Shown in pieces: positions 5,116 through 54,210 of a DNA stretch of 64,000 nucleotides. The position numbers and the translations under genes are program-made. This DNA is from a bacterium. GTDB lineage: Bacteria > Vulcanimicrobiota > JABDET01. The stretch spans positions 83,634 to 147,633 of the forward strand of contig JAJYZB010000004.1 in assembly GCA_021800275.1 (NCBI GenBank), in the 5' to 3' direction. How positions within the stretch are numbered: the first letter of the stretch is position 1; each line of letters begins with the position of its first letter. Below the pieces are notes generated by a model. That model saw nothing but the letters and a program-made list of their open reading frames with translations, was not told the DNA's origin and searched no databases.

Positions 5116-6993
5116 CTAAAAATTTGTCACTTCTACGGGGTAAGAACTGGAAGATGTGCTTCCATCCCCCAGCATTCCCCATTCATTGCTGCCCCAGGAG
5201 TAAATTTTCCCTGTGTTGGCAAGAACGATAAAAGTTGGTTGATCTGTCCATGCTGCTACTTGTGGGGTCGTAATTCCCCCAGAAAGGCTCAGCAAACTTA
5301 GGCAGCAGGAGTTATTCGTATTATTAACTTCAACAGAATAAGGGGCATAATCAAAAGTAGACGTGGTTGACTGGCAGGTTGTGCTGCCATCAGCATTGAC
5401 CACTTCCTGATAATAGGGAGAAGTTGTATAAGTATCTGGGCCTGTCGTGACTCCAATTCCTAATCCATCTCCACCTTCCCCCCATGTCCATACACTCCCA
5501 TCACTTTTGATGACTAAAACGTCATCTTCACCCACTGCAATTTGTGCTTGACTTGGAGTCCCTACATTAAAAGGTGCTCCTGTAGAGTCCCTCACTTCAA
5601 CAGGAAGAGGAGAGTAATTTATCGGATAACCGGGAGTTAATTCTCCGATAAGAGTCCCCGAAGAGTCAGTCTCATAACACGTGTACGAATATTTCACAGG
5701 TCCTTGATTCGGGAAAGAGCTGCTGTAACCTAATTGCCCCCAAGTATTGTCCCCCCATGCCCAAACATGACCTGAGCTGTCAATAGCATAACTGTCACGC
5801 CTGCCTGTAGCAATTGCCACAATATTGCTGAGGCAGCAGGATCCACTTGAATTCAGGACTTCAGTGAGATAGATTTCACATATTGCTCCTCCACAAAATT
5901 CTTCTCCATAAGGAAGACTGGTATTTTTCCAGGAGCAGCTGATTGTTGTGCCGCATTTGGCAGGTCCTCCATTAATTCCCAACTGTCCGTATTCATCATC
6001 TCCCCATGCCCAAACATGACCATAAGTGTCAAGGGCAAGTCCATGGTAGTTATCCCCAACAGCAGATAAAACAATATTGGTGAAACTATTCCCCCCAGGA
6101 GGGTAACTGCTATTTTGGATAGGAGTAGTTGGAGTTGGATCATAATCTTGAGGAATATTGGTATCAACCCCACTTCCTGTATAACCATTTCCAAGAGCTC
6201 CATAAACATTCCCGCCCCAAACTAAAAGTTTCTGATTGTTGATCCCAACTGCTGTCTGATAGATTCCTCCTGAAAAAGAGGTCCATCCCCCTGAAGAAGG
6301 CAGAACCAAAGTTTTTGGGTAAGCATTAACACCATTGACACAGTTGCCAGAGTTATAGCAGATTCCATCCCCATTGTTTAGAACCCCTGATCCATTTTCT
6401 CCCCAGGAGTACCCTGTACCATTACTCCCAATGACAAAATCCTGGTAAGCGGTTCCAGTGAGTATGGGAAGGACTGGAGGAACTCCAACATTAAAGCAGC
6501 AGGATCCGCTAGATCCATCTGCTTTTACGGGTGTACTGGTGGTAGAACAAGGAGGATTCGAGCACTGGGTATTCCATCCCCAAAGCCACACATTTCCTGA
6601 GGTATCAACTGCCATTCCTGGACCAATAGCTAATGCCTGTGTTCCCACTGGTTTTATAGAAACCAGAGTGGTCCTGACTCCATTGGGTCCAGAAACCATA
6701 ACTTGAACTGTCTTGAGATTAGGATAACTGGCACTGTAAGGGTTGATGCTCAGATTCCAGGAATAATTTTGATAAGGTGCGCTGAAACTGCCGCTGCCTG
6801 CTGTGATCGTTTTCTGATACAAAGTTTCCTCCATTTTTTGTTCGGCTAAAAAATCAGCCCGAGCTAAAAATTGGGATCGGTTAGAAATATCTATGGCTCC
6901 ACCAAAAAGCAGAGCTGCAAAGGTCATGACAATGAAAAGAATCGCTATGGAAATTTCAACCTCTAAAAGACTGAGTCCCTTTTTAAATTTCAT
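5116..6993 (-). CDS. GspI-like minor pseudopilin fused to a seven-repeat RCC1-type beta-propeller
   Basis: ATG at 6993 is preceded by GGAGG and gives MKFKKG|LSLLEVEISIAILF. About 140 aa of pilin-like head follow. Then come seven repeats of the type VW(A/T/L)WG-x4-GQLG (NVWLWGWN, YSWGENGSG, LVWGGNVYGALG, VWAWGDDEYGQLG, VWAWGDNTWGQLG, VWTWGEGGDGLG, IYSWGSNEWGMLG). Many Cys pairs. Confidence 0.75.
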   Translation of the reverse strand: MKFKKGLSLLEVEISIAILFIVMTFAALLFGGAIDISNRSQFLARADFLAEQKMEETLYQKTITAGSGSFSAPYQNYSWNLSINPYSASYPNLKTVQVMVSGPNGVRTTLVSIKPVGTQALAIGPGMAVDTSGNVWLWGWNTQCSNPPCSTTSTPVKADGSSGSCCFNVGVPPVLPILTGTAYQDFVIGSNGTGYSWGENGSGVLNNGDGICYNSGNCVNGVNAYPKTLVLPSSGGWTSFSGGIYQTAVGINNQKLLVWGGNVYGALGNGYTGSGVDTNIPQDYDPTPTTPIQNSSYPPGGNSFTNIVLSAVGDNYHGLALDTYGHVWAWGDDEYGQLGINGGPAKCGTTISCSWKNTSLPYGEEFCGGAICEIYLTEVLNSSGSCCLSNIVAIATGRRDSYAIDSSGHVWAWGDNTWGQLGYSSSFPNQGPVKYSYTCYETDSSGTLIGELTPGYPINYSPLPVEVRDSTGAPFNVGTPSQAQIAVGEDDVLVIKSDGSVWTWGEGGDGLGIGVTTGPDTYTTSPYYQEVVNADGSTTCQSTTSTFDYAPYSVEVNNTNNSCCLSLLSLSGGITTPQVAAWTDQPTFIVLANTGKIYSWGSNEWGMLGDGSTSSSSYPVEVTNF

Positions 6994-7015
6994 TCCAATG
7001 CCTCCGTCCCAGGGC

Positions 7016-7399
7016 TTATTGTTCAACCTCTGACCACTGACTGACACTGCCTCCTGGAGCCACAAGAAGAGCCTGATTGAAAACCACCCCTGCGCCTCCC
7101 AGCACCTCCCCCTGAAAATAGATATTTCCTTTCCTATCTTTCCAGATAAGACAGACGTGATTAGCTGAACCATCAGGAATTTCAACGGTTATCGGGTTAA
7201 TGGAAAGGGTTGGGCTGACTGTCTCATAGTACTGCATTCCCCCCTGTGCAAGATAAAATGCCGCCAGAGAACTGCTGACTTTCCCTGAAACAAAATAGTT
7301 TTGAGAAGAAAAAGTTAGAAGAGCCGCTCCTAAAATAACAACAATTGCAAAAACAGCTAAAACCATGGCTAATGCCATTCCGTTTCTAGGGGAATTCAT
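7016..7399 (-). CDS. PilX/GspK-like minor pseudopilin (no Glu+5)
   Basis: N-terminus MNSPRNG|MALAMVLAVFAIVVILGAALL, 127 aa. It is first in a same-strand run with the two pseudopilins downstream. Confidence 0.5.
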   Translation of the reverse strand: MNSPRNGMALAMVLAVFAIVVILGAALLTFSSQNYFVSGKVSSSLAAFYLAQGGMQYYETVSPTLSINPITVEIPDGSANHVCLIWKDRKGNIYFQGEVLGGAGVVFNQALLVAPGGSVSQWSEVEQ

Positions 7400-7444: not shown

Positions 7445-7520
<76 letters not shown>

Positions 7521-15013: not shown

Positions 15014-15214
15014 CTATAAAATTCCTGCAGATTCCTCTGCAGCAGTCAAAATTAATTTCCCTTCTCTGGTGACCTGGCGAACAATTCTCCATTTCCCATT
15101 TCCTTTAAAAGATTTAACTGAATATGTTTTTTGAACTTCAAACTCCAGTCCAAACTCTTCAACTTTTCTGATAGCATCACCCATAGGAAAAGCAATCACA
15201 TCGGGAGACATCAT
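15014..15214 (-). CDS. small conserved-looking hypothetical protein (66 aa)
   Basis: Its ATG overlaps the frr stop (ATGA at 15211-15214). The alpha/beta-looking sequence is not low complexity. No family recognised. Confidence 0.4.
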   Translation of the reverse strand: MMSPDVIAFPMGDAIRKVEEFGLEFEVQKTYSVKSFKGNGKWRIVRQVTREGKLILTAAEESAGIL

Positions 15215-17930: not shown

Positions 17931-18016
17931 GCATCACCTCTTTTCACTGTGCTGTTTTCGGTTCGGTAACGATTGAAAATTCCCTGCATGGGGGGATAGA
18001 CGCTGCCAAAAGCAGT

Positions 18017-18895
18017 TTACTGCTTCAAGTTTAAAACCCGGGAAGCGGTATCCCTTATCAACTGAGCAAAAGGGAAAAATACATTCCCAGCAGCTGCAGT
18101 TACCAGAACGCTGAAAGGAGGGGTTATCAAAGGATGAAAGCCTTTGTAAAACTTCTCAAAAATATCCTTTTCAGCCAATCTATTCCGATTTGAAATCAAT
18201 ATTTCGCTGAATTTACTCTCCATATCAGAATCCCACTGCTCAACATACTTCTCCCCATATTTTTGCACCATTTTATGGATCTCTTCATCCGACAGTTCTT
18301 TAATTTTCTCTACCACAGGACGAACATTAGAAGGTTCTGCATATTTTCCCATAATGGTGAGGTTAGCTTTAGGGATTTTTTTAATGCTAGGAACCAAAAT
18401 TTCTCTTGTGGAAATTCCACGATTAAAACTCTGTCCAAAATCGCCTGCCAAAACAGTCCCATCTTTTGCAATAAAAATATTGCTGTTATTAATCGTAATA
18501 TCCCAATCTCCTAACCAACCCCGCACAACACACTGGGCAACCGCTTCATTCGGATTCTTAATCTTTTTCGCCGAAGTCTCCCATAAAGTGGAAAGATCAG
18601 GAACATACGGACAGATTACCGCTTTTTCAAGCTGCCCTTCTTGATTCCTCACTGCTCCTTCCTGATAAGGAATTCCAGGCAATTTAAACTCATCCACCAT
18701 AATATGAGAAGCCACTACTTCTTTCGCAATCGCTTCATTCACTTCAAGAGGACTCCTATTCCCTATCCCATACTGTTTTACAACATACAAATTCCCATCC
18801 TCCCCCCTTGCTTTCTCTGCATGATGAGCTCCCGAGAAATGGGCTTTAGCCCCTGCTGCTGGTTGATTCAAAGGGAAAACTTGAAGGGGTTTCAT
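18017..18895 (-). CDS. kinase-fold paralog 1 (PI3K/PI4K-like catalytic signature)
   Basis: GAHHAEKARGEDGNLYVVK (Gly-rich segment plus Lys), NEAIAKEVVASH, AVICPYVPD, WLGDWDITINNSNIF-x3-DGTVLAGDFG. Its ATG overlaps the paralog 2 stop (TAATG at 18893-18897). Confidence 0.65.
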   Translation of the reverse strand: MKPLQVFPLNQPAAGAKAHFSGAHHAEKARGEDGNLYVVKQYGIGNRSPLEVNEAIAKEVVASHIMVDEFKLPGIPYQEGAVRNQEGQLEKAVICPYVPDLSTLWETSAKKIKNPNEAVAQCVVRGWLGDWDITINNSNIFIAKDGTVLAGDFGQSFNRGISTREILVPSIKKIPKANLTIMGKYAEPSNVRPVVEKIKELSDEEIHKMVQKYGEKYVEQWDSDMESKFSEILISNRNRLAEKDIFEKFYKGFHPLITPPFSVLVTAAAGNVFFPFAQLIRDTASRVLNLKQ

Positions 18896-19785
18896 TATTT
18901 CAAAGCCTTTGGAAGATGCTCTTGCAGTACCCTAAAAGCCTGGGCTATAGGCAGTCCGAAATGGGGGATAACCGCCCCAATGATCGTGCTGACAGGAGGT
19001 GTAATAAAAGGATGAAATCCTTTGTAAAAGTTTGTAAAAGCATTTTTTTCAGACAACTCATTCCTGTTTTGAATCAAAACTTGACTGAACTCTTCCTCTA
19101 ACTCCTGATTCCAGAAGGTGGTATATTCAGAACCATATTTATGAACCATTTCTCGGATCTCTCTATCTGTTAACGCTTTAATTTTTTCCGAGATGGGTCC
19201 AACATTAGATGGATTGGCATATTGATTCATAATCTCTAAATTGGCTTTTGGCGCTCCCTTGCCCGGTAATCTTTTTAAAATTTGATAACGAATTCCCTTC
19301 TGGAAAGCCAGTCCGTAATCCCCTGACAAAACGGTTCCATCTTTTTTCATGAAAATATTGCTGTTATTAATAATTGTATCAGGGTCACCAAGCCAACCCC
19401 GCACAACACACTGGGCAACCGCTTCATTCGGATTCTTAATCTTTTTCACCGAAGTTTCCCAGAGGGTTGAAAGATCGGGAACATACGGACAAATCACTGC
19501 TTTTACAGGAGGACAACCTTCTCTCTGAGAAATCCCTTCCTGATAAGGGATCCCTGCAAGTTTAAATTCATCCGCTAAAATATGAGAAGCCACAACCTCT
19601 TTTGCAATCGCTTCATTCACTTCTGATGAACTTAGCGGCCGATGGCCGCTCCCATACGTGGGAGATTTAACAACATATAGTTTTCCATCCTCTCCTTTTG
19701 CTTTTTCTGCGCCGTTGGCGCCGCCCCATTTAGCATCCGGATTAGCCGCTCTCTGATTCAAAGAATGGACTGTCAATAGATTCAC
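18895..19785 (-). CDS. kinase-fold paralog 2
   Basis: Same motif set (GANGAEKAKGEDGKLYVVK; WLGDPDTIINNSNIF; GDYG). The start is set at GTG 19785, preceded by GGAGGT and overlapping the paralog 3 stop (GTGA). The track Met at 19824 would overlap paralog 3 by 43 nt. Confidence 0.65.
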   Translation of the reverse strand: MNLLTVHSLNQRAANPDAKWGGANGAEKAKGEDGKLYVVKSPTYGSGHRPLSSSEVNEAIAKEVVASHILADEFKLAGIPYQEGISQREGCPPVKAVICPYVPDLSTLWETSVKKIKNPNEAVAQCVVRGWLGDPDTIINNSNIFMKKDGTVLSGDYGLAFQKGIRYQILKRLPGKGAPKANLEIMNQYANPSNVGPISEKIKALTDREIREMVHKYGSEYTTFWNQELEEEFSQVLIQNRNELSEKNAFTNFYKGFHPFITPPVSTIIGAVIPHFGLPIAQAFRVLQEHLPKALK

Positions 19786-20699
19786 TTCTGACCTCCTTTT
19801 ACTGTACTTTTCTTTGGAAAACAATTTTCAAGAGCTCGCAAAGCTTCGGCTAAAGGAGCTCTAACATAAACACTGGCTGCGCCGATAAGGGAGCTGAGAG
19901 GGGGTTTAATGAAAGGATGAAATCCCTTATAAAAACCCTCAAACACATTTTCTTTCCTCAATTCATCACGGTTATCCCTCAGCACCTGGGTAAACTGATC
20001 TTCTAATTCTCTGTTCCAAAAAGAAGTATACTCTGTCCCATATTTATGCACCATCCCACGAATCTCTCCGTCGGACAAGTTCCGAATTTTTTCAGCCATA
20101 GGCGACACATTAGAAGGGTTAGCGTATTGATTCATGACCGTAAAGTTAGCTTTTGGAAATCCCTTAAAACGAGGAAATGAAACAGGTCGAAATCGTATCC
20201 CTTTTTTAAAAGCCTCGCCAAAATCTCCCGCTAAAACGGTTCCATCTTTTTTTACAAAAACATTGCTGTTATTAAGAATCGTTCCCCATTCTCCAAGCCA
20301 TCCTTTTACAATGCACTGAGAAACTGCCTCCTGGGGATTCTTGATTTTTTCCACAGGAATCTCGCAGAGAGTGGCAAGATCAGGAACATAAGGACAGATC
20401 ACCGCTTTTTCAAGATGACCTTCTTGACTTTGAACTAATCCCTCCTGGTAAGGAATTCCAGACAATTTAAATTCATCCACCATAATATGAGAAGCCACAA
20501 CCTCTCTCGCAATTGCTTTTTCTACCTCCAATGAAGTCAAAGGATGGCGATTTCTGCCATATTGGGGAGATTTAAAAACATAAAGTTTCTGATCCTCACC
20601 CAACGCTTTTTCCGCGCCATTTCTACCTTTCAAATAAGCCCCAGGACCTGCAGCAGGCTCATGGAGTGGATGGACACGCAAAAGTTCAATTGAATTCAC
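19782..20699 (-). CDS. kinase-fold paralog 3 (putative catalytic Asp replaced: GEWGTILNNSNVF)
   Basis: Same architecture (GRNGAEKALGEDQKLYVFK; GDFG). The start is probably GTG 20699 after AAGGAG. The track start at 20714 is a TTG. Confidence 0.6.
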   Translation of the reverse strand: MNSIELLRVHPLHEPAAGPGAYLKGRNGAEKALGEDQKLYVFKSPQYGRNRHPLTSLEVEKAIAREVVASHIMVDEFKLSGIPYQEGLVQSQEGHLEKAVICPYVPDLATLCEIPVEKIKNPQEAVSQCIVKGWLGEWGTILNNSNVFVKKDGTVLAGDFGEAFKKGIRFRPVSFPRFKGFPKANFTVMNQYANPSNVSPMAEKIRNLSDGEIRGMVHKYGTEYTSFWNRELEDQFTQVLRDNRDELRKENVFEGFYKGFHPFIKPPLSSLIGAASVYVRAPLAEALRALENCFPKKSTVKGGQK

Positions 20700-20773
20700 A
20701 ACTCTCTCCTTCAATAAATGTCATTCACCAAAAAATTCATATTGATTTATCTCTCACATCAATACACGTTCAA

Positions 20774-20802
20774 AGTATAGCGAAAAGAAATACCTAATTC
20801 AA
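20774..20802 (-). promoter_or_regulatory. candidate sigma-70 promoter for the kinase-like triplet
   Basis: The minus strand reads TTGAAT-N17-TATACT (-35 at 20802..20797, -10 at 20779..20774), about 75 nt upstream of the paralog 3 start. Sequence match only. Confidence 0.3.
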
Positions 20803-20941
20803 TTAAAAAAATGTTACCAATTGGACAGAAACACCTATGCCTCTTTACTCATGAGAATTTGCGGGTATTCTTGCGCCACCCTTCAGCAGGAAAATCAAAC
20901 TTTCATAAACCATTCGGGCTGCAGAGCGCCCCTCTAAGACT

Positions 20942-21784
20942 CTAGAGAATTGATGCTTTTTGGAAAGAAACTTGGGGAGCGATTTTCTTCAGCAATTCTT
21001 TAATCGTTTCTTCTTGACTGATCGCAGCTCCATTTTTTTCTAGCAGCCGCGCTTTTTTTATGCTCCCAAAAGGCTGGCCGTCACAAACAAGGGATATAAG
21101 AGCAGTATGCAGGGGAGAAAGACTTGGATTAAAAGCAGAATTTTCAATATAGCTGCCAACATAAACTTTTCTGTCTTTTGTCATTAAAGCAAGCCCTGAA
21201 GGGGATTTTGAGTAAGGGGAATAAGAAGCCTTCACGCCTCTCAGGGCAGCGAGCCATAGATCCTTATTTCTCAGCCTGGCAGGCAAAAGTTTATCAGAGG
21301 CTTTACGGTCGAAATTTTGAAGAGAAGAAAAAAAAACTGTGCTTTCACCTTGCAAAGAAAATTTGAAGGAATAAGGAAAAAGACGGGAAAATTGGACAGC
21401 TTTCCCATTGGAAATTAAAACTTTCAATCGGGAAGAATCTTTCCCAATCTCAGAAATCCACTGCCTGCAGCAGCCGCATGGTGGAGCAGTAACAGCAAGA
21501 AAAAGAAGCTTTTTCTCCCCATGATTCAAGGCATTGATAATGCCAAACTGTTCAGCATGAATGGTTTGGCTGAGGGGAACTCCAGCGAACTCTAGATTAA
21601 CTCCCAGATAAATATTTCCGCTTTCCCCTAAAAAAGCCGCGCCTACTTGATAATGAGAAATTGGAGCCATTCCTTTTTTAGAAATATCGAAAGCAAATTT
21701 TTGCATCTGTTTCTCTTTTGAGTACCCCGACCTTATCTGACTTTGCAAAACTCTTTCCCTGGAAATAAAAAAAGGATAAATCAT
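20942..21784 (-). CDS. cdd: cytidine deaminase, two-domain (homodimeric) type
   Basis: First domain has zinc ligands HAEQ and PCGCCRQW. The second domain is degenerate CDA-like (SPYSKSPSG...YIENSAFNPSLSP). Its ATG overlaps the upstream gene's stop (ATGA at 21781-21784). Confidence 0.75.
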   Translation of the reverse strand: MIYPFFISRERVLQSQIRSGYSKEKQMQKFAFDISKKGMAPISHYQVGAAFLGESGNIYLGVNLEFAGVPLSQTIHAEQFGIINALNHGEKKLLFLAVTAPPCGCCRQWISEIGKDSSRLKVLISNGKAVQFSRLFPYSFKFSLQGESTVFFSSLQNFDRKASDKLLPARLRNKDLWLAALRGVKASYSPYSKSPSGLALMTKDRKVYVGSYIENSAFNPSLSPLHTALISLVCDGQPFGSIKKARLLEKNGAAISQEETIKELLKKIAPQVSFQKASIL

Positions 21785-24027: not shown

Positions 24028-24888
24028 ATGTTGACAATTGGCAGTGGTTTCGGAGGAGCAGGATTAATCAGCCCTGAACTCCAATTTCCTTCTCAAGCCA
24101 TTGGTTCAACTGGGTCAAGCTGTCCCTGCTGCTCAGAGGGCGGTTGCAGCCCTGCAGGTTCAGGTGGTTATGGCGCAGGGTCACCCAATTCATCAGGATC
24201 TTCAAATCCAGCCCAGCTTAATGCAGAATTAGAAATGCTTTTAGCAGAATTAGCCATGCTTTTAGCCCAGCAACAAGGCGGGCTTTCCGGAGGATCAGGC
24301 TCAGGCGGATATGGCGGCAGCGGTGGTTATGGCGGAATGAATCCACTGGGTTCTGTCGGCGGTTCAGGCGGGTATGGCGGCGGCAGCCCTGTAGGTTCAG
24401 GCGGATACGGCGGTTCTCCTGTCCAAGGAGGCAGCGGCAGTTATGGTGGACCCAATTCTTCGGGTTCTGCTGGTCCCCTTACTCCAGCTATTGGTCAAGC
24501 TCCGCAAAATGCAAAAGCAATGTATAATTTCTTCACTTCTCATGGTCTTTCTCCTTACGCAGCATCCGGAATCATTGGAAATATCGCTCAGGAATCCGGT
24601 GGGAATCCCGAGAGCGTCGGTTCAGGAGGAAATGGATTGATTGGATGGACACCTCCTCTCCCTAATGCTGTAACAGGCAACCCACAGAGAGATCTCAATT
24701 ATCAATTGAACGCTGTGATGCAGTACATCGGTCAAAATGGATCTGTTGCAGATATCAATGCTCATGCCAGCAGCCCTGCTGCAGCTGCAGCGTACTTCAT
24801 GAACAATTACGAAAGACCTGCTGTGGCGACAGAGAATGCCTCTCACAGAGAAATGGCGGCCAATGCTACTGCCCAACTTTATGCATAA
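24028..24888 (+). CDS. Gly/Tyr-rich low-complexity protein with C-terminal phage-tail-lysozyme-like domain
   Basis: RBS AAAGGAG. The N-terminal half has SGGYGG repeats, a CPCCSEGGC cluster and a duplicated AELEMLL/AELAMLL heptad. The C-terminal motif ASGIIGNIAQESGGNPESVGSGGNGLIGWTP matches my memory of the phage tail lysozyme family. No signal peptide. Confidence 0.6.
   Translation: MLTIGSGFGGAGLISPELQFPSQAIGSTGSSCPCCSEGGCSPAGSGGYGAGSPNSSGSSNPAQLNAELEMLLAELAMLLAQQQGGLSGGSGSGGYGGSGGYGGMNPLGSVGGSGGYGGGSPVGSGGYGGSPVQGGSGSYGGPNSSGSAGPLTPAIGQAPQNAKAMYNFFTSHGLSPYAASGIIGNIAQESGGNPESVGSGGNGLIGWTPPLPNAVTGNPQRDLNYQLNAVMQYIGQNGSVADINAHASSPAAAAAYFMNNYERPAVATENASHREMAANATAQLYA
24286..24450 (+). repeat. 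imperfect tandem coding repeats (GGYGG units)
   Basis: Repeated ggcggatayggcgg / ggttcaggcgg units encode SGGYGG five to six times. Confidence 0.7.
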
Positions 24889-42149: not shown

Positions 42150-42226
42150 TGGCGCGCCCGAAGGGACTCGAACCCCTAACCCTCAGATCCGAAGTCTGAT
42201 GCTCTATCCAATTGAGCTACGGGCGC
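42150..42226 (-). tRNA. tRNA-Arg (anticodon TCG), CCA encoded
   Basis: Reverse complement GCGCCCG-TA-GCTC-AATTGGATA-GAGC-A-TCAGA-CTTCGGA-TCTGA-GGGTT-AGGGG-TTCGAGT-CCCTT-CGGGCGC-G-CCA. Confidence 0.9.
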
Positions 42227-42249: not shown

Positions 42250-42327
42250 TGGGGTGAGTGAAGGGACTTGAACCCTCAACCCTCGGAGCCACAGTCCGAT
42301 GCTCTAACCAGTTGAGCTACACCCACC
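42250..42327 (-). tRNA. tRNA-His (anticodon GTG) with encoded G-1 and CCA
   Basis: The reverse complement starts G-GTGGGTG, anticodon arm TCGGA-CTGTGGC-TCCGA, T arm GAGGG-TTCAAGT-CCCTT, 3' CACTCAC-C-CCA. The extra 5' G pairs with C73, as is typical of bacterial tRNA-His. Confidence 0.9.
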
Positions 42328-53800: not shown

Positions 53801-54210
53801 GGGGGCGCCCGGTTTCGACGGGAGCGCTTCAAGAAAGAAGAGCAGGTCGAGGTTCCGCTGGCCTCGTAAAAAAGCGGAAAAAACGCAAGTGCGTATAGCA
53901 ATCTTGCAAGCCACTCAGCAGAAGAAGTTATTGCGAGAGCAGAATCTCTTCTGAACCCAGTGGCAGTTGCTGCCTAATTTAAGGTAGCCGTCTCGGGCGG
54001 CTTCTGTCTGTAGGGCCATCTAGAGGCGCAACTAATGCAGACTTTCTCTGATTGTTCGCCTCTACAGTCAAGAGGAGAAAAGAAAAGGCTAGGCTGACCA
54101 GATCCAGCTTTAGGGGAGCTGAGCAGCTGAACTAAAAACCAGAGCTAAACCTGTAGCGCTTTTTTCTTAAACCTCTTCGGACGCGGGTTCGATTCCCGCC
54201 GCCTCCACCA
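53801..54210 (+). ncRNA. ssrA: tmRNA (one-piece)
   Basis: 5' GGGGGCG pairs with 3' CGCCTCC-ACCA, including a G3:U70 pair. 5' GGTTTCGACGGG box. PK1-like GGCCTCGTAAAAAAGCGG as in E. coli. 3' T arm GCGGG-TTCGATT-CCCGC. An internal reading frame ends GCA GTT GCT GCC TAA. Confidence 0.9.
53885..53977 (+). other. predicted tmRNA tag reading frame (ASAYSNLASHSAEEVIARAESLLNPVAVAA-stop)
   Basis: The resume codon GCA at 53885 is inferred by analogy with E. coli (PK1, then an A-rich spacer, then GCA). In-frame TAA at 53975-53977. The resume position is the uncertain part. Confidence 0.45.

Follow-up and report, generated by a model that had tools for sequence, protein, structure and literature searches.

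What are three adjacent kinase-like genes doing directly upstream of the rpsB-tsf-pyrH-frr genes, and to which kinases are their products related? This question is raised by a 64,000-nucleotide stretch of bacterial DNA from contig JAJYZB010000004.1, referred to here as the window. The three genes, named A, B and C in the order in which they are read, lie on the minus strand, and a preliminary description of the sequence had interpreted them as a tandem array of PI3K/PI4K-like kinase paralogs. A predicted structure supports the kinase fold, while profile comparisons place the proteins in a distinct family, situated in the HipA / PI3K-PI4K-like region of the kinase superfamily and, judged by sequence, a member of neither group. 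We consider the locus to be one operon of cytoplasmic ATP-dependent phosphotransferases that belong to a rare, uncurated kinase-like family in the HipA_2 / PI3K-PI4K-like region. We assign this explanation a probability of about 55%.

The gene order on the minus strand is cdd (20942-21784), a gap of 227 nucleotides (nt), A, B, C, a gap of 86 nt and rpsB-tsf-pyrH-frr. The three genes have the following limits:

19782-20699, minus strand: gene A, 305 amino acids; GTG start at 20699, with AAGGAG 7 nt upstream
18895-19785, minus strand: gene B, 296 amino acids; GTG start at 19785, with AGGAGG 6 nt upstream
18017-18895, minus strand: gene C, 292 amino acids; ATG start at 18895

The TGA stop of A overlaps the GTG start of B as GTGA at 19782-19785, and the TAA stop of B overlaps the ATG start of C as TAATG at 18893-18897. 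The three same-strand open reading frames (ORFs) are confirmed, and both overlaps lie exactly where they had been described. A mechanical ORF list puts the starts of A and B further upstream, at TTG codons. The GTG, GTG and ATG starts were preferred because of the Shine-Dalgarno sequences in front of A and B and because they agree with ortholog lengths of 300, 297 and 288 amino acids in a sister species. The proteins are 58-62% identical in pairwise comparison, with tblastn E-values of 1e-98 to 1e-117, and their paralogy is therefore far beyond chance.

The structure of protein B was predicted with AlphaFold2 from an alignment of 49 family sequences (an alignment of six sequences gave a predicted local distance difference test score, pLDDT, of 47 and was unusable). 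All conservation counts below come from the same 49 sequences, and residue numbers are those of the 309-amino-acid ORF B, from which 13 has to be subtracted for the real B protein. The model reached a pLDDT of 88.6 and a predicted template modelling score (pTM) of 0.85. The predicted N-lobe has five strands (17-25, 40-44, 49-53, 95-100 and 107-113) and a long alphaC helix (66-86). The hinge falls at AVICPYVPD and is followed by an alphaE-like helix (132-144) and the catalytic loop; two short strands then lead to the D[FY]G motif. An activation-loop-like segment of about 25 residues comes next and ends in a conserved P-K-A-N. The predicted C-lobe has five helices, and the C-terminal helix (278-303) is of low confidence. 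The model thus has the two lobes seen in protein-kinase-like (PKL) superfamily members, a beta-rich N-lobe with alphaC and a helical C-lobe.

A Foldseek comparison of this model with the PDB, a check that the preliminary description had proposed, returned 883 matches at E<=1e-3. The best 50 of these 883 by E-value were all canonical protein kinases, among them JAK2, Abl, MAPKs, NEK1 and PknA, with probabilities of 0.99-1.0, and not proteins of a non-kinase fold. In the BFVD database the best matches were kinase-like domains within phage proteins of 1.1-1.5 thousand residues, with E-values down to 1.9e-9 and a TMq of 0.50. Viral proteins annotated as PI3K/PI4K superposed on the model with a TMq of 0.37-0.48, compared with about 0.32 for canonical viral Ser/Thr kinases. 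Some of the kinase-like phage proteins nearest to the model carry annotations as ADP-ribosyltransferase or portal fusions. Together with conserved catalytic residues, the confident model and the kinases among its best 50 PDB matches bear out the kinase fold proposed earlier.

Common to A, B and C are a Gly-rich stretch followed by LYV[VF]K, then EVVASH, AVICPYVPD, GD[FY]G, FYKGFHP-x-I-x-PP and a C-terminal tail. Every motif listed as shared in the preliminary description was found in all three proteins, except that the catalytic-loop D-x4-N is absent from A. Across the family, the beta3 Lys K53, G146, the DFG/DYG Asp D169 and N253 are invariant (49/49). N156 is present in 48 members, the catalytic-loop Asp D149 in 47, P192 in 46, R254 in 45 and N153 in 39. 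The alphaC position E76 is Glu in 33 members and Asp in 8; residue 147 is Asp in 33, Asn in 14 and Glu in 2; and N154, the Asn at +5, is Asn in 15 and Asp in 16. The family signature reads W-x-G-[DN]-x-D-[R]-x2-N-x2-N ... G-D-[FY]-G, with D-R at the catalytic loop in 22 of the 49 relatives, and the loop of B and C reads G-D-[WP]-D-[IT]-x-I-N-N-S-N. The conserved spacing is D-x6-N-x12-D, so that Asp and Asn are 7 residues apart, not 5. The D-x4-N pattern reported for all three proteins has to be revised on two counts: A has Gly in place of the Asp, and the family-wide Asn is N156, not N154. The positions themselves hold in the homologues, which had been named as a point on which the kinase interpretation could fail. 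N253-R254, P192 and L218-x-D220 are family-specific conserved residues of no assigned role.

The Lys, Asp, Asn and Mg-binding Asp that characterise the PKL superfamily are all present in B and C, and A is without D149. The codons of the full sets are located as follows:

minus strand, gene B: Lys 19666-19668, Glu 19597-19599, Asp 19378-19380, Asn 19357-19359, DYG Asp 19318-19320
minus strand, gene C: Lys 18776-18778, Glu 18719-18721, Asp 18500-18502, Asn 18479-18481, DFG Asp 18440-18442

Two further features are shared by the triplet. An insertion of 8 residues rich in Lys and Arg follows the DFG motif. The C-terminal tail, which had been described as hydrophobic or amphipathic, is present in all three proteins and is amphipathic, with a hydrophobic moment of 0.46-0.69. 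Its best 19-residue Kyte-Doolittle mean is 1.0-1.6, and a transmembrane anchor was rejected on this borderline hydrophobicity. Direct reading of the N-termini of A, B and C revealed no hydrophobic, signal-like segment, in agreement with the reported absence of signal peptides.

Copy A differs from its two neighbours at the catalytic loop, which reads GEWGTILNNSN, the Asp of B and C being replaced by Gly (codon GGA, 20283-20285). The other catalytic positions of A are retained:

minus strand, gene A: beta3 Lys 20571-20573, alphaC Glu 20502-20504, Asn 20262-20264, DFG Asp 20223-20225; Asp replaced by Gly

A and its ortholog P0004 are the only two of the 49 members that lack D149; both have Gly there and both also carry D147E. 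At 10 positions A and its ortholog have fixed a residue that differs from the one common to B, C and their orthologs, and 6 of the 10 lie at residues 140-157. Since D149 is lost while K53, E76, N156 and D169 are kept and purifying selection acts on the gene, A is probably a pseudokinase or regulatory subunit, one with nucleotide binding intact and a regulatory or scaffolding role.

We then asked where these proteins stand among known kinases. The Pfam comparison suggested earlier attributed none of them to a curated family, and their family is unannotated. PF00454 gave no match in A, B or C at E<=1 and none among the 49 members at E<=0.01. HipA_2, HipA_C and Couple_hipA gave no match in A, B or C at E<=1. 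Pkinase (PF00069) matched neither the window proteins nor their relatives, and HRD and APE motifs are absent. A scan of A, B and C against PADLOC-DB 2.0 at E<=1 returned nothing, and one against PHROGs nothing meaningful. Weak matches to AraA_central / L-arabinose isomerase (E ~0.03-0.1) fall on a helical stretch and were set aside as fortuitous. PDB profile searches with the whole family and with the GNxDR subgroup detected no PI3K, PI4K, HipA or CtkA chain. The sole PDB sequence signal was NEK1 (HMMER, E = 0.01 over 21 residues), with N156..D169 aligned to the catalytic Asn and DFG.

Two connections lead out of the family. The first is to HipA_2: the distant relative P0028 exceeds the cut-off of this Pfam model (29.4 bits, cut-off 27) in an alignment that covers the N-lobe and catalytic loop, and P0022, P0029 and P0031 show weak HipA_2 matches in the same region. 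P0028, P0094 and P0096 also have a precomputed PF20613 assignment; these distant relatives, and not the window proteins, reach the HipA_2 model. As P0028 aligns to A, B and C at E ~1e-19 to 1e-23, the link from the triplet to HipA_2 is one of transitive homology. The second connection is to gp16 of the halovirus HSTV-2 (AGC34285.1), a 490-amino-acid protein with the UniProt label 'PI3K/PI4K catalytic domain' that scores 25.5 bits against a PI3_PI4_kinase cut-off of 27.1. Alignment of the family profile to gp16 with hhalign gave 56% probability and E = 1e-4. It spans the Lys, the DR..N loop and the DxG motif, and places D149/N156 on the D/N of DRHxxN with a gap of 2 residues. The gp16 gene (L019 10647-12119, KC117376.1) lies within the head/tail virion structural module of HSTV-2; gp16 and the large phage proteins mentioned above suggest virion-borne kinase-like domains.

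Compared with the PI3K loop G-x-G-D-R-H-x-x-N, the window proteins have DFG/DYG, no Arg-His and an insertion of 2 residues. They consist of 292-305 amino acids with the N-lobe starting at about residue 17, and do not contain a helical (PIK) accessory domain. The PI3K/PI4K label therefore holds as a remote resemblance, seen in the gp16 alignment and the BFVD superpositions, but not as an assignment, given the missing PF00454 match, the missing DRH and the loop insertion. In the same way, the likeness noted earlier between NNSNIF...GDFG and GDRHNSNIM...HIDFG is a fair description of the catalytic loop but does not amount to family membership.

The family is rare. A word-indexed search of 5.8 billion proteins recovered the window's own proteins, three orthologs from one sister species and nothing else. 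When 1.84 billion cluster representatives were searched exhaustively with an HMMER profile, 60 proteins matched at E<=1e-3 and 18 of them at E<=1e-30, and the earlier statement that such proteins are uncommon in bacteria fits these figures. Two metagenome scans detected no relative, and tblastn of B against 50,697 phage genomes gave no match. Every name found for a family member was 'hypothetical protein'. Most relatives have 250-450 amino acids; some carry the domain at the C-terminus of proteins of 770-1080 amino acids, and others are fused to a different kinase type, namely P0008 (uridine-kinase-like, Udk-like) and P0024 (APH). Matches to APH, PRK, ABC1 and AAA_16 lie in the separate C-terminal domains of P0024 and P0008 and were rejected as a family assignment. 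Whether homologues also form tandem arrays had been raised as a question: they do so in the sister species, and the other relatives are single-copy, which indicates that the array is specific to the lineage of the window.

The surroundings of individual relatives are diverse. The gene of the 947-amino-acid relative P0038 (L013 8586-12844, on an Elusimicrobiota contig) overlaps the end of a PF01663 phosphodiesterase gene by 4 nt, and the two have a PhoR/PhoB-like two-component pair on one side and a pst-phoU phosphate-transport cluster on the other. Long family members may be linked to phosphate starvation. P0009, which is 40% identical (L010 481-17305), is found among two Pkinase-ankyrin-repeat genes, FHIPEP-TPR fusions and further TPR genes. 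FHIPEP belongs to type III export, and such gene content is typical of symbionts of eukaryotes. The metagenome-assembled genome (MAG) GCA_964393635.1 (L017, L018; L008, L009) encodes two divergent members, P0059 and the APH-fused P0024, with another APH gene and a Zeta_toxin-like gene nearby.

The array is older than the two species. In the sister species the same three genes occur in the same order between cdd and rpsB, also with 4-nt overlaps. Each window gene is closest to its positional ortholog (A/P0004 73%, B/P0002 78%, C/P0006 82% identity, against 58-66% for any paralog pair), and the triplication must therefore predate the species split. The ratios of nonsynonymous to synonymous substitution (dN/dS) are 0.14 for A, 0.08 for B and 0.07 for C compared with 0.03 for rpsB; these are rough values, with dS near saturation. 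All three genes are under purifying selection. The guanine-cytosine (GC) content of the array is 41.7% and that of the flanks 41.5-41.8%. A recent horizontal insertion was rejected on the equal GC content, the synteny and the dN/dS of 0.07-0.14, and the 'accessory insertion' of the preliminary description is not supported as a recent event. B and C share an exact stretch of 55 nt, found by script, in the region from the hinge to alphaE:

18515-18569, no strand assigned: copy in gene C
19393-19447, no strand assigned: copy in gene B

Over about 40 codons around this run, nucleotide identity is 88-89% and identity at third positions is 73-80%, the background being about 50%. The run and the surrounding patch of high third-position identity indicate gene conversion between B and C. 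Similar patches occur in A/C at codons 59-89 and in A'/B' of the sister species at codons 44-74. The sister genome (MAG YP4.bin17, JAKAVV010000012.1) also contains a fourth, unlinked paralog of 308 amino acids (L006 9950-10876), 47% identical to B and flanked by a UDP-glucose-dehydrogenase-like and a RarA-like gene. It is 44-48% identical to the remote relatives P0007 and P0009, about as close to them as to the triplet.

The regions on both sides of the array were also compared with the sister species:

20765-20827, minus strand: conserved upstream block, holding a sigma-70-like promoter match
17931-18016, minus strand: spacer from gene C to rpsB, 86 nt, without a convincing terminator

The promoter match (20802 to 20774) consists of a -35 element TTGAAT at 20802-20797, a 17-nt spacer and a -10 element TATACT at 20779-20774. 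The block around it is almost unchanged in loci L001 and L005 of the sister species, while the remaining parts of the 227-nt gap have diverged. The region has no more promoter-like sites than expected from shuffled sequences, so it is the conservation of the block and not the number of sites that supports a real promoter, as had been suggested for the array. The 227-nt gap contains ORFs of 20-44 amino acids only and no adjacent antitoxin-type gene. A terminator scan of the minus strand of the 86-nt spacer found none, and its predicted fold is not more stable than that of shuffles (z = 0.72). Its rpsB-proximal half is conserved in the sister species. Without a convincing terminator, read-through from C into rpsB-tsf-pyrH-frr is possible.

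From these results we infer how the operon might work. B and C would be active kinases, and A would be a catalytically impaired, ATP-binding paralog with a regulatory or scaffolding role. The three proteins would be made in fixed proportions and act together. The FYKGFHP-x-I-x-PP motif and the amphipathic C-terminal helix may tether them to the membrane's inner face or to one another, and the basic, paralog-specific insertion after DFG, in the activation-loop-like segment, could set the choice of substrate. We slightly favour a target close to the membrane, be it a lipid or a protein associated with the membrane, over the translation machinery that a HipA-style kinase would attack.

Several observations weigh against this explanation. 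The model superposes on solved kinases with low TM-scores (0.3-0.4), sequence comparison detects no solved structure, and the Pfam and NCBIfam scans of A, B and C reached no curated model. The hhalign comparison of the family profile with E. coli HipA and HipH was insignificant (1.9% and 1.3% probability). The gene neighbourhoods of the relatives contain no consistent partner and thus offer no guilt-by-association clue. The role of D149, 7 residues before the Asn, as catalytic base is proposed from alignments and not from geometry, and A could remain active by means of E147 or another residue. The two observations behind a hetero-oligomer are the translational coupling and the shared tail.

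The strongest alternative is that the proteins are true lipid kinases of the PI3K/PI4K type, which would add phosphate to the headgroup of a membrane lipid (phosphatidylinositol or a different glycerolipid or glycolipid) and bind the membrane through the C-terminal helix and the basic loop after DFG, in the manner of eukaryotic PI3Ks. The better superposition of the PI3K/PI4K-annotated viral proteins than of canonical kinases and the link to gp16, itself near the PI3_PI4_kinase threshold, point in this direction. The amphipathic tail, the K/R-rich insertion, the relatives fused to small-molecule kinase domains (Udk-like and APH) and the relative in an operon with a PF01663 phosphodiesterase at a pho/pst cluster are also consistent with it. 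None of these points is strong. Against them stand the lack of a PF00454 match in all 49 members, the lack of a DRH motif in the window proteins, their size of only about 300 amino acids without a helical accessory domain, the protein kinases as top PDB fold matches and the lack of lipid-synthesis genes nearby, which together leave a lipid kinase an unlikely though plausible candidate. A bolder version, which we regard as speculative and improbable, combines both ideas. It envisages a heteromeric kinase-kinase-pseudokinase complex, attached to the inner membrane face via its C-terminal helices and phosphorylating lipid. This would be an unrecognised bacterial lipid-kinase family bridging the HipA type and the PI3K/PI4K type, with a pseudokinase regulator derived from tandem duplication.

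Could the array instead be a growth-arrest module of the HipA kind, with B and C as Ser/Thr kinase toxins acting on a translation component and the dead copy A as their neutralising partner? HipA_2 is the nearest curated family, the array is located directly upstream of rpsB-tsf, and the inactive-looking copy is encoded first, in the usual position of an antitoxin. The insignificant HipA alignment places D149 and N154 on the equivalent Asp and Asn of HipA. The criteria for Hip kinases include an adjacent antitoxin gene, usually for a DNA-binding or HipS-like protein, and growth arrest upon expression, caused by phosphorylation of an aminoacyl-tRNA synthetase or another translation factor (Gerdes et al. 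2021, PMC8262856). No such antitoxin gene adjoins the array, which is flanked by cdd and rpsB here and in the sister species, and single-copy relatives occur without a partner gene. HipA_C, Couple_hipA and PADLOC models found no match, and the locus is stable, syntenic and of host-like GC content, not patchy or mobile. The missing antitoxin gene, the stability of the locus and the lack of a defence-system signature make a toxin-antitoxin role of the HipA type unlikely, and we give the complete module with its dead neutralising partner little credence.

The kinase fold might also have been turned to other chemistry or to none, as in AMPylases or glutamylases (of which SelO and SidJ are examples) or in purely structural pseudokinases. 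The atypical catalytic loop with 7 instead of 5 residues from Asp to Asn, the invariant family-specific residues N253-R254, P192 and L218-x-D220 of no known role, and the low TM-scores to canonical kinases are in line with such a change. However, about 47 of the 49 members have the full Lys/Glu/Asp/Asn/Asp set, the pattern expected for ordinary phosphotransfer, and this reading is very improbable. By the analogy with Legionella LepB and MavQ drawn in the preliminary description, the proteins might be effectors that are secreted or injected and act on a host cell, eukaryotic or bacterial, but this is hardly credible. In its favour, P0009 has Pkinase-ankyrin and FHIPEP/TPR genes around it, large phage proteins are the closest viral neighbours in structure, and gp16 belongs to a virion structural module. 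Against it, A, B and C have no signal peptide, the examined regions of the 64-kb window hold no secretion-system genes, and the locus sits among housekeeping genes.

Other features of the window were noted along the way. A small ORF of 66 amino acids (15014-15214, minus strand) overlaps the stop codon of frr just upstream of uppS; it has no Pfam match, and a 67-amino-acid gene is called at the matching position in the sister species. A 689-amino-acid protein with RCC1 repeats, resembling an RCC1-like beta-propeller, is encoded at 5116-7185 (minus strand); such a domain is characteristic of eukaryotes and seldom seen in bacteria. Within a long run of minus-strand genes a single gene lies on the plus strand (24028-24888); it encodes 286 amino acids with a long Gly/Ser-rich N-terminal half containing GGYGG-type repeats, and the syntenic gene of the sister species (L001) has a Phage_lysozyme2 domain. 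The window also carries a full-length transfer-messenger RNA (tmRNA) gene at 53801-54210 (plus strand; Rfam RF00023, 168 bits) and tRNA genes at 7448-7520, 42153-42226 and 42253-42326.

Uncharacterised bacterial kinase-like families are numerous (PMC9758233; bioRxiv 10.64898/2026.09.18.752743). The catalogue of those beyond the curated set is still growing, and several have shown unexpected chemistry or substrates. A rare, unnamed family in the thinly sampled region between the HipA-like toxins and the PI3K/PI4K-type kinases bears on the relation of these branches. Two catalytically complete copies and one without the Asp, all maintained in two species, amount to a natural experiment within one operon and provide a compact bacterial system for kinase-pseudokinase partnerships and for gene conversion between paralogs in tandem. 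For the present the practical impact is limited, the host being uncultured.

Among known systems, HipA_2 (PF20613) is the only curated model passed by any family member, and distant members share the G-N-x-D-R start of the loop. It has been grouped with HipA_C as KINtaro PKLF000019 (bioRxiv 10.64898/2026.09.18.752743). The window proteins differ from HipA_2 in giving no match at E<=1, in having no partner gene, in a loop that is 2 residues longer and in the C-terminal FYKGFHP motif and amphipathic helix of the triplet family. The Ser/Thr kinase toxins HipA, HipT and HipH (E. coli HipA: PF07804 and PF13657) are likewise atypical bacterial kinases with a core of similar size, and the hhalign alignment to HipA, insignificant as it is, sets D149 on D309 and N154 on N314. 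Unlike them, the triplet lacks the HipA N-terminal domain and a HipB/HipS neighbour, and is chromosomal, syntenic and triplicated. Eukaryotic-like kinases (PF00069; JAK2, Abl, NEK1, PknA) lead the PDB fold matches with about 300 aligned columns, whereas Pfam matches and HRD/APE motifs are missing and TM-scores stay at 0.3-0.4.

SEAE1, a kinase-like protein found inside bacterial cells, offers a further comparison. It resembles PI3_PI4_kinase in structure but only very weakly in sequence, its Lys/Asp/Asn/Asp core (D216-x4-N221-x19-D241) is intact, and it has 7,867 homologues, mostly in Bacteroidota (bioRxiv 10.64898/2026.09.18.752743). Compared by description only, the triplet family is far smaller (about 60 clusters) and its spacing is D-x6-N-x12-D instead of D-x4-N-x19-D. 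PI3K/PI4K enzymes differ from the window proteins by the Arg-His after the Asp, a loop that is 2 residues shorter and the helical/C2 accessory domains. With these enzymes and with HSTV-2 gp16 the family nevertheless shares the beta3 Lys, a DxG motif and the catalytic loop G-[DN]-x-D-R...N. In the triplet, the amphipathic C-terminal helix recalls the membrane-binding C-terminal helix of eukaryotic PI3Ks.

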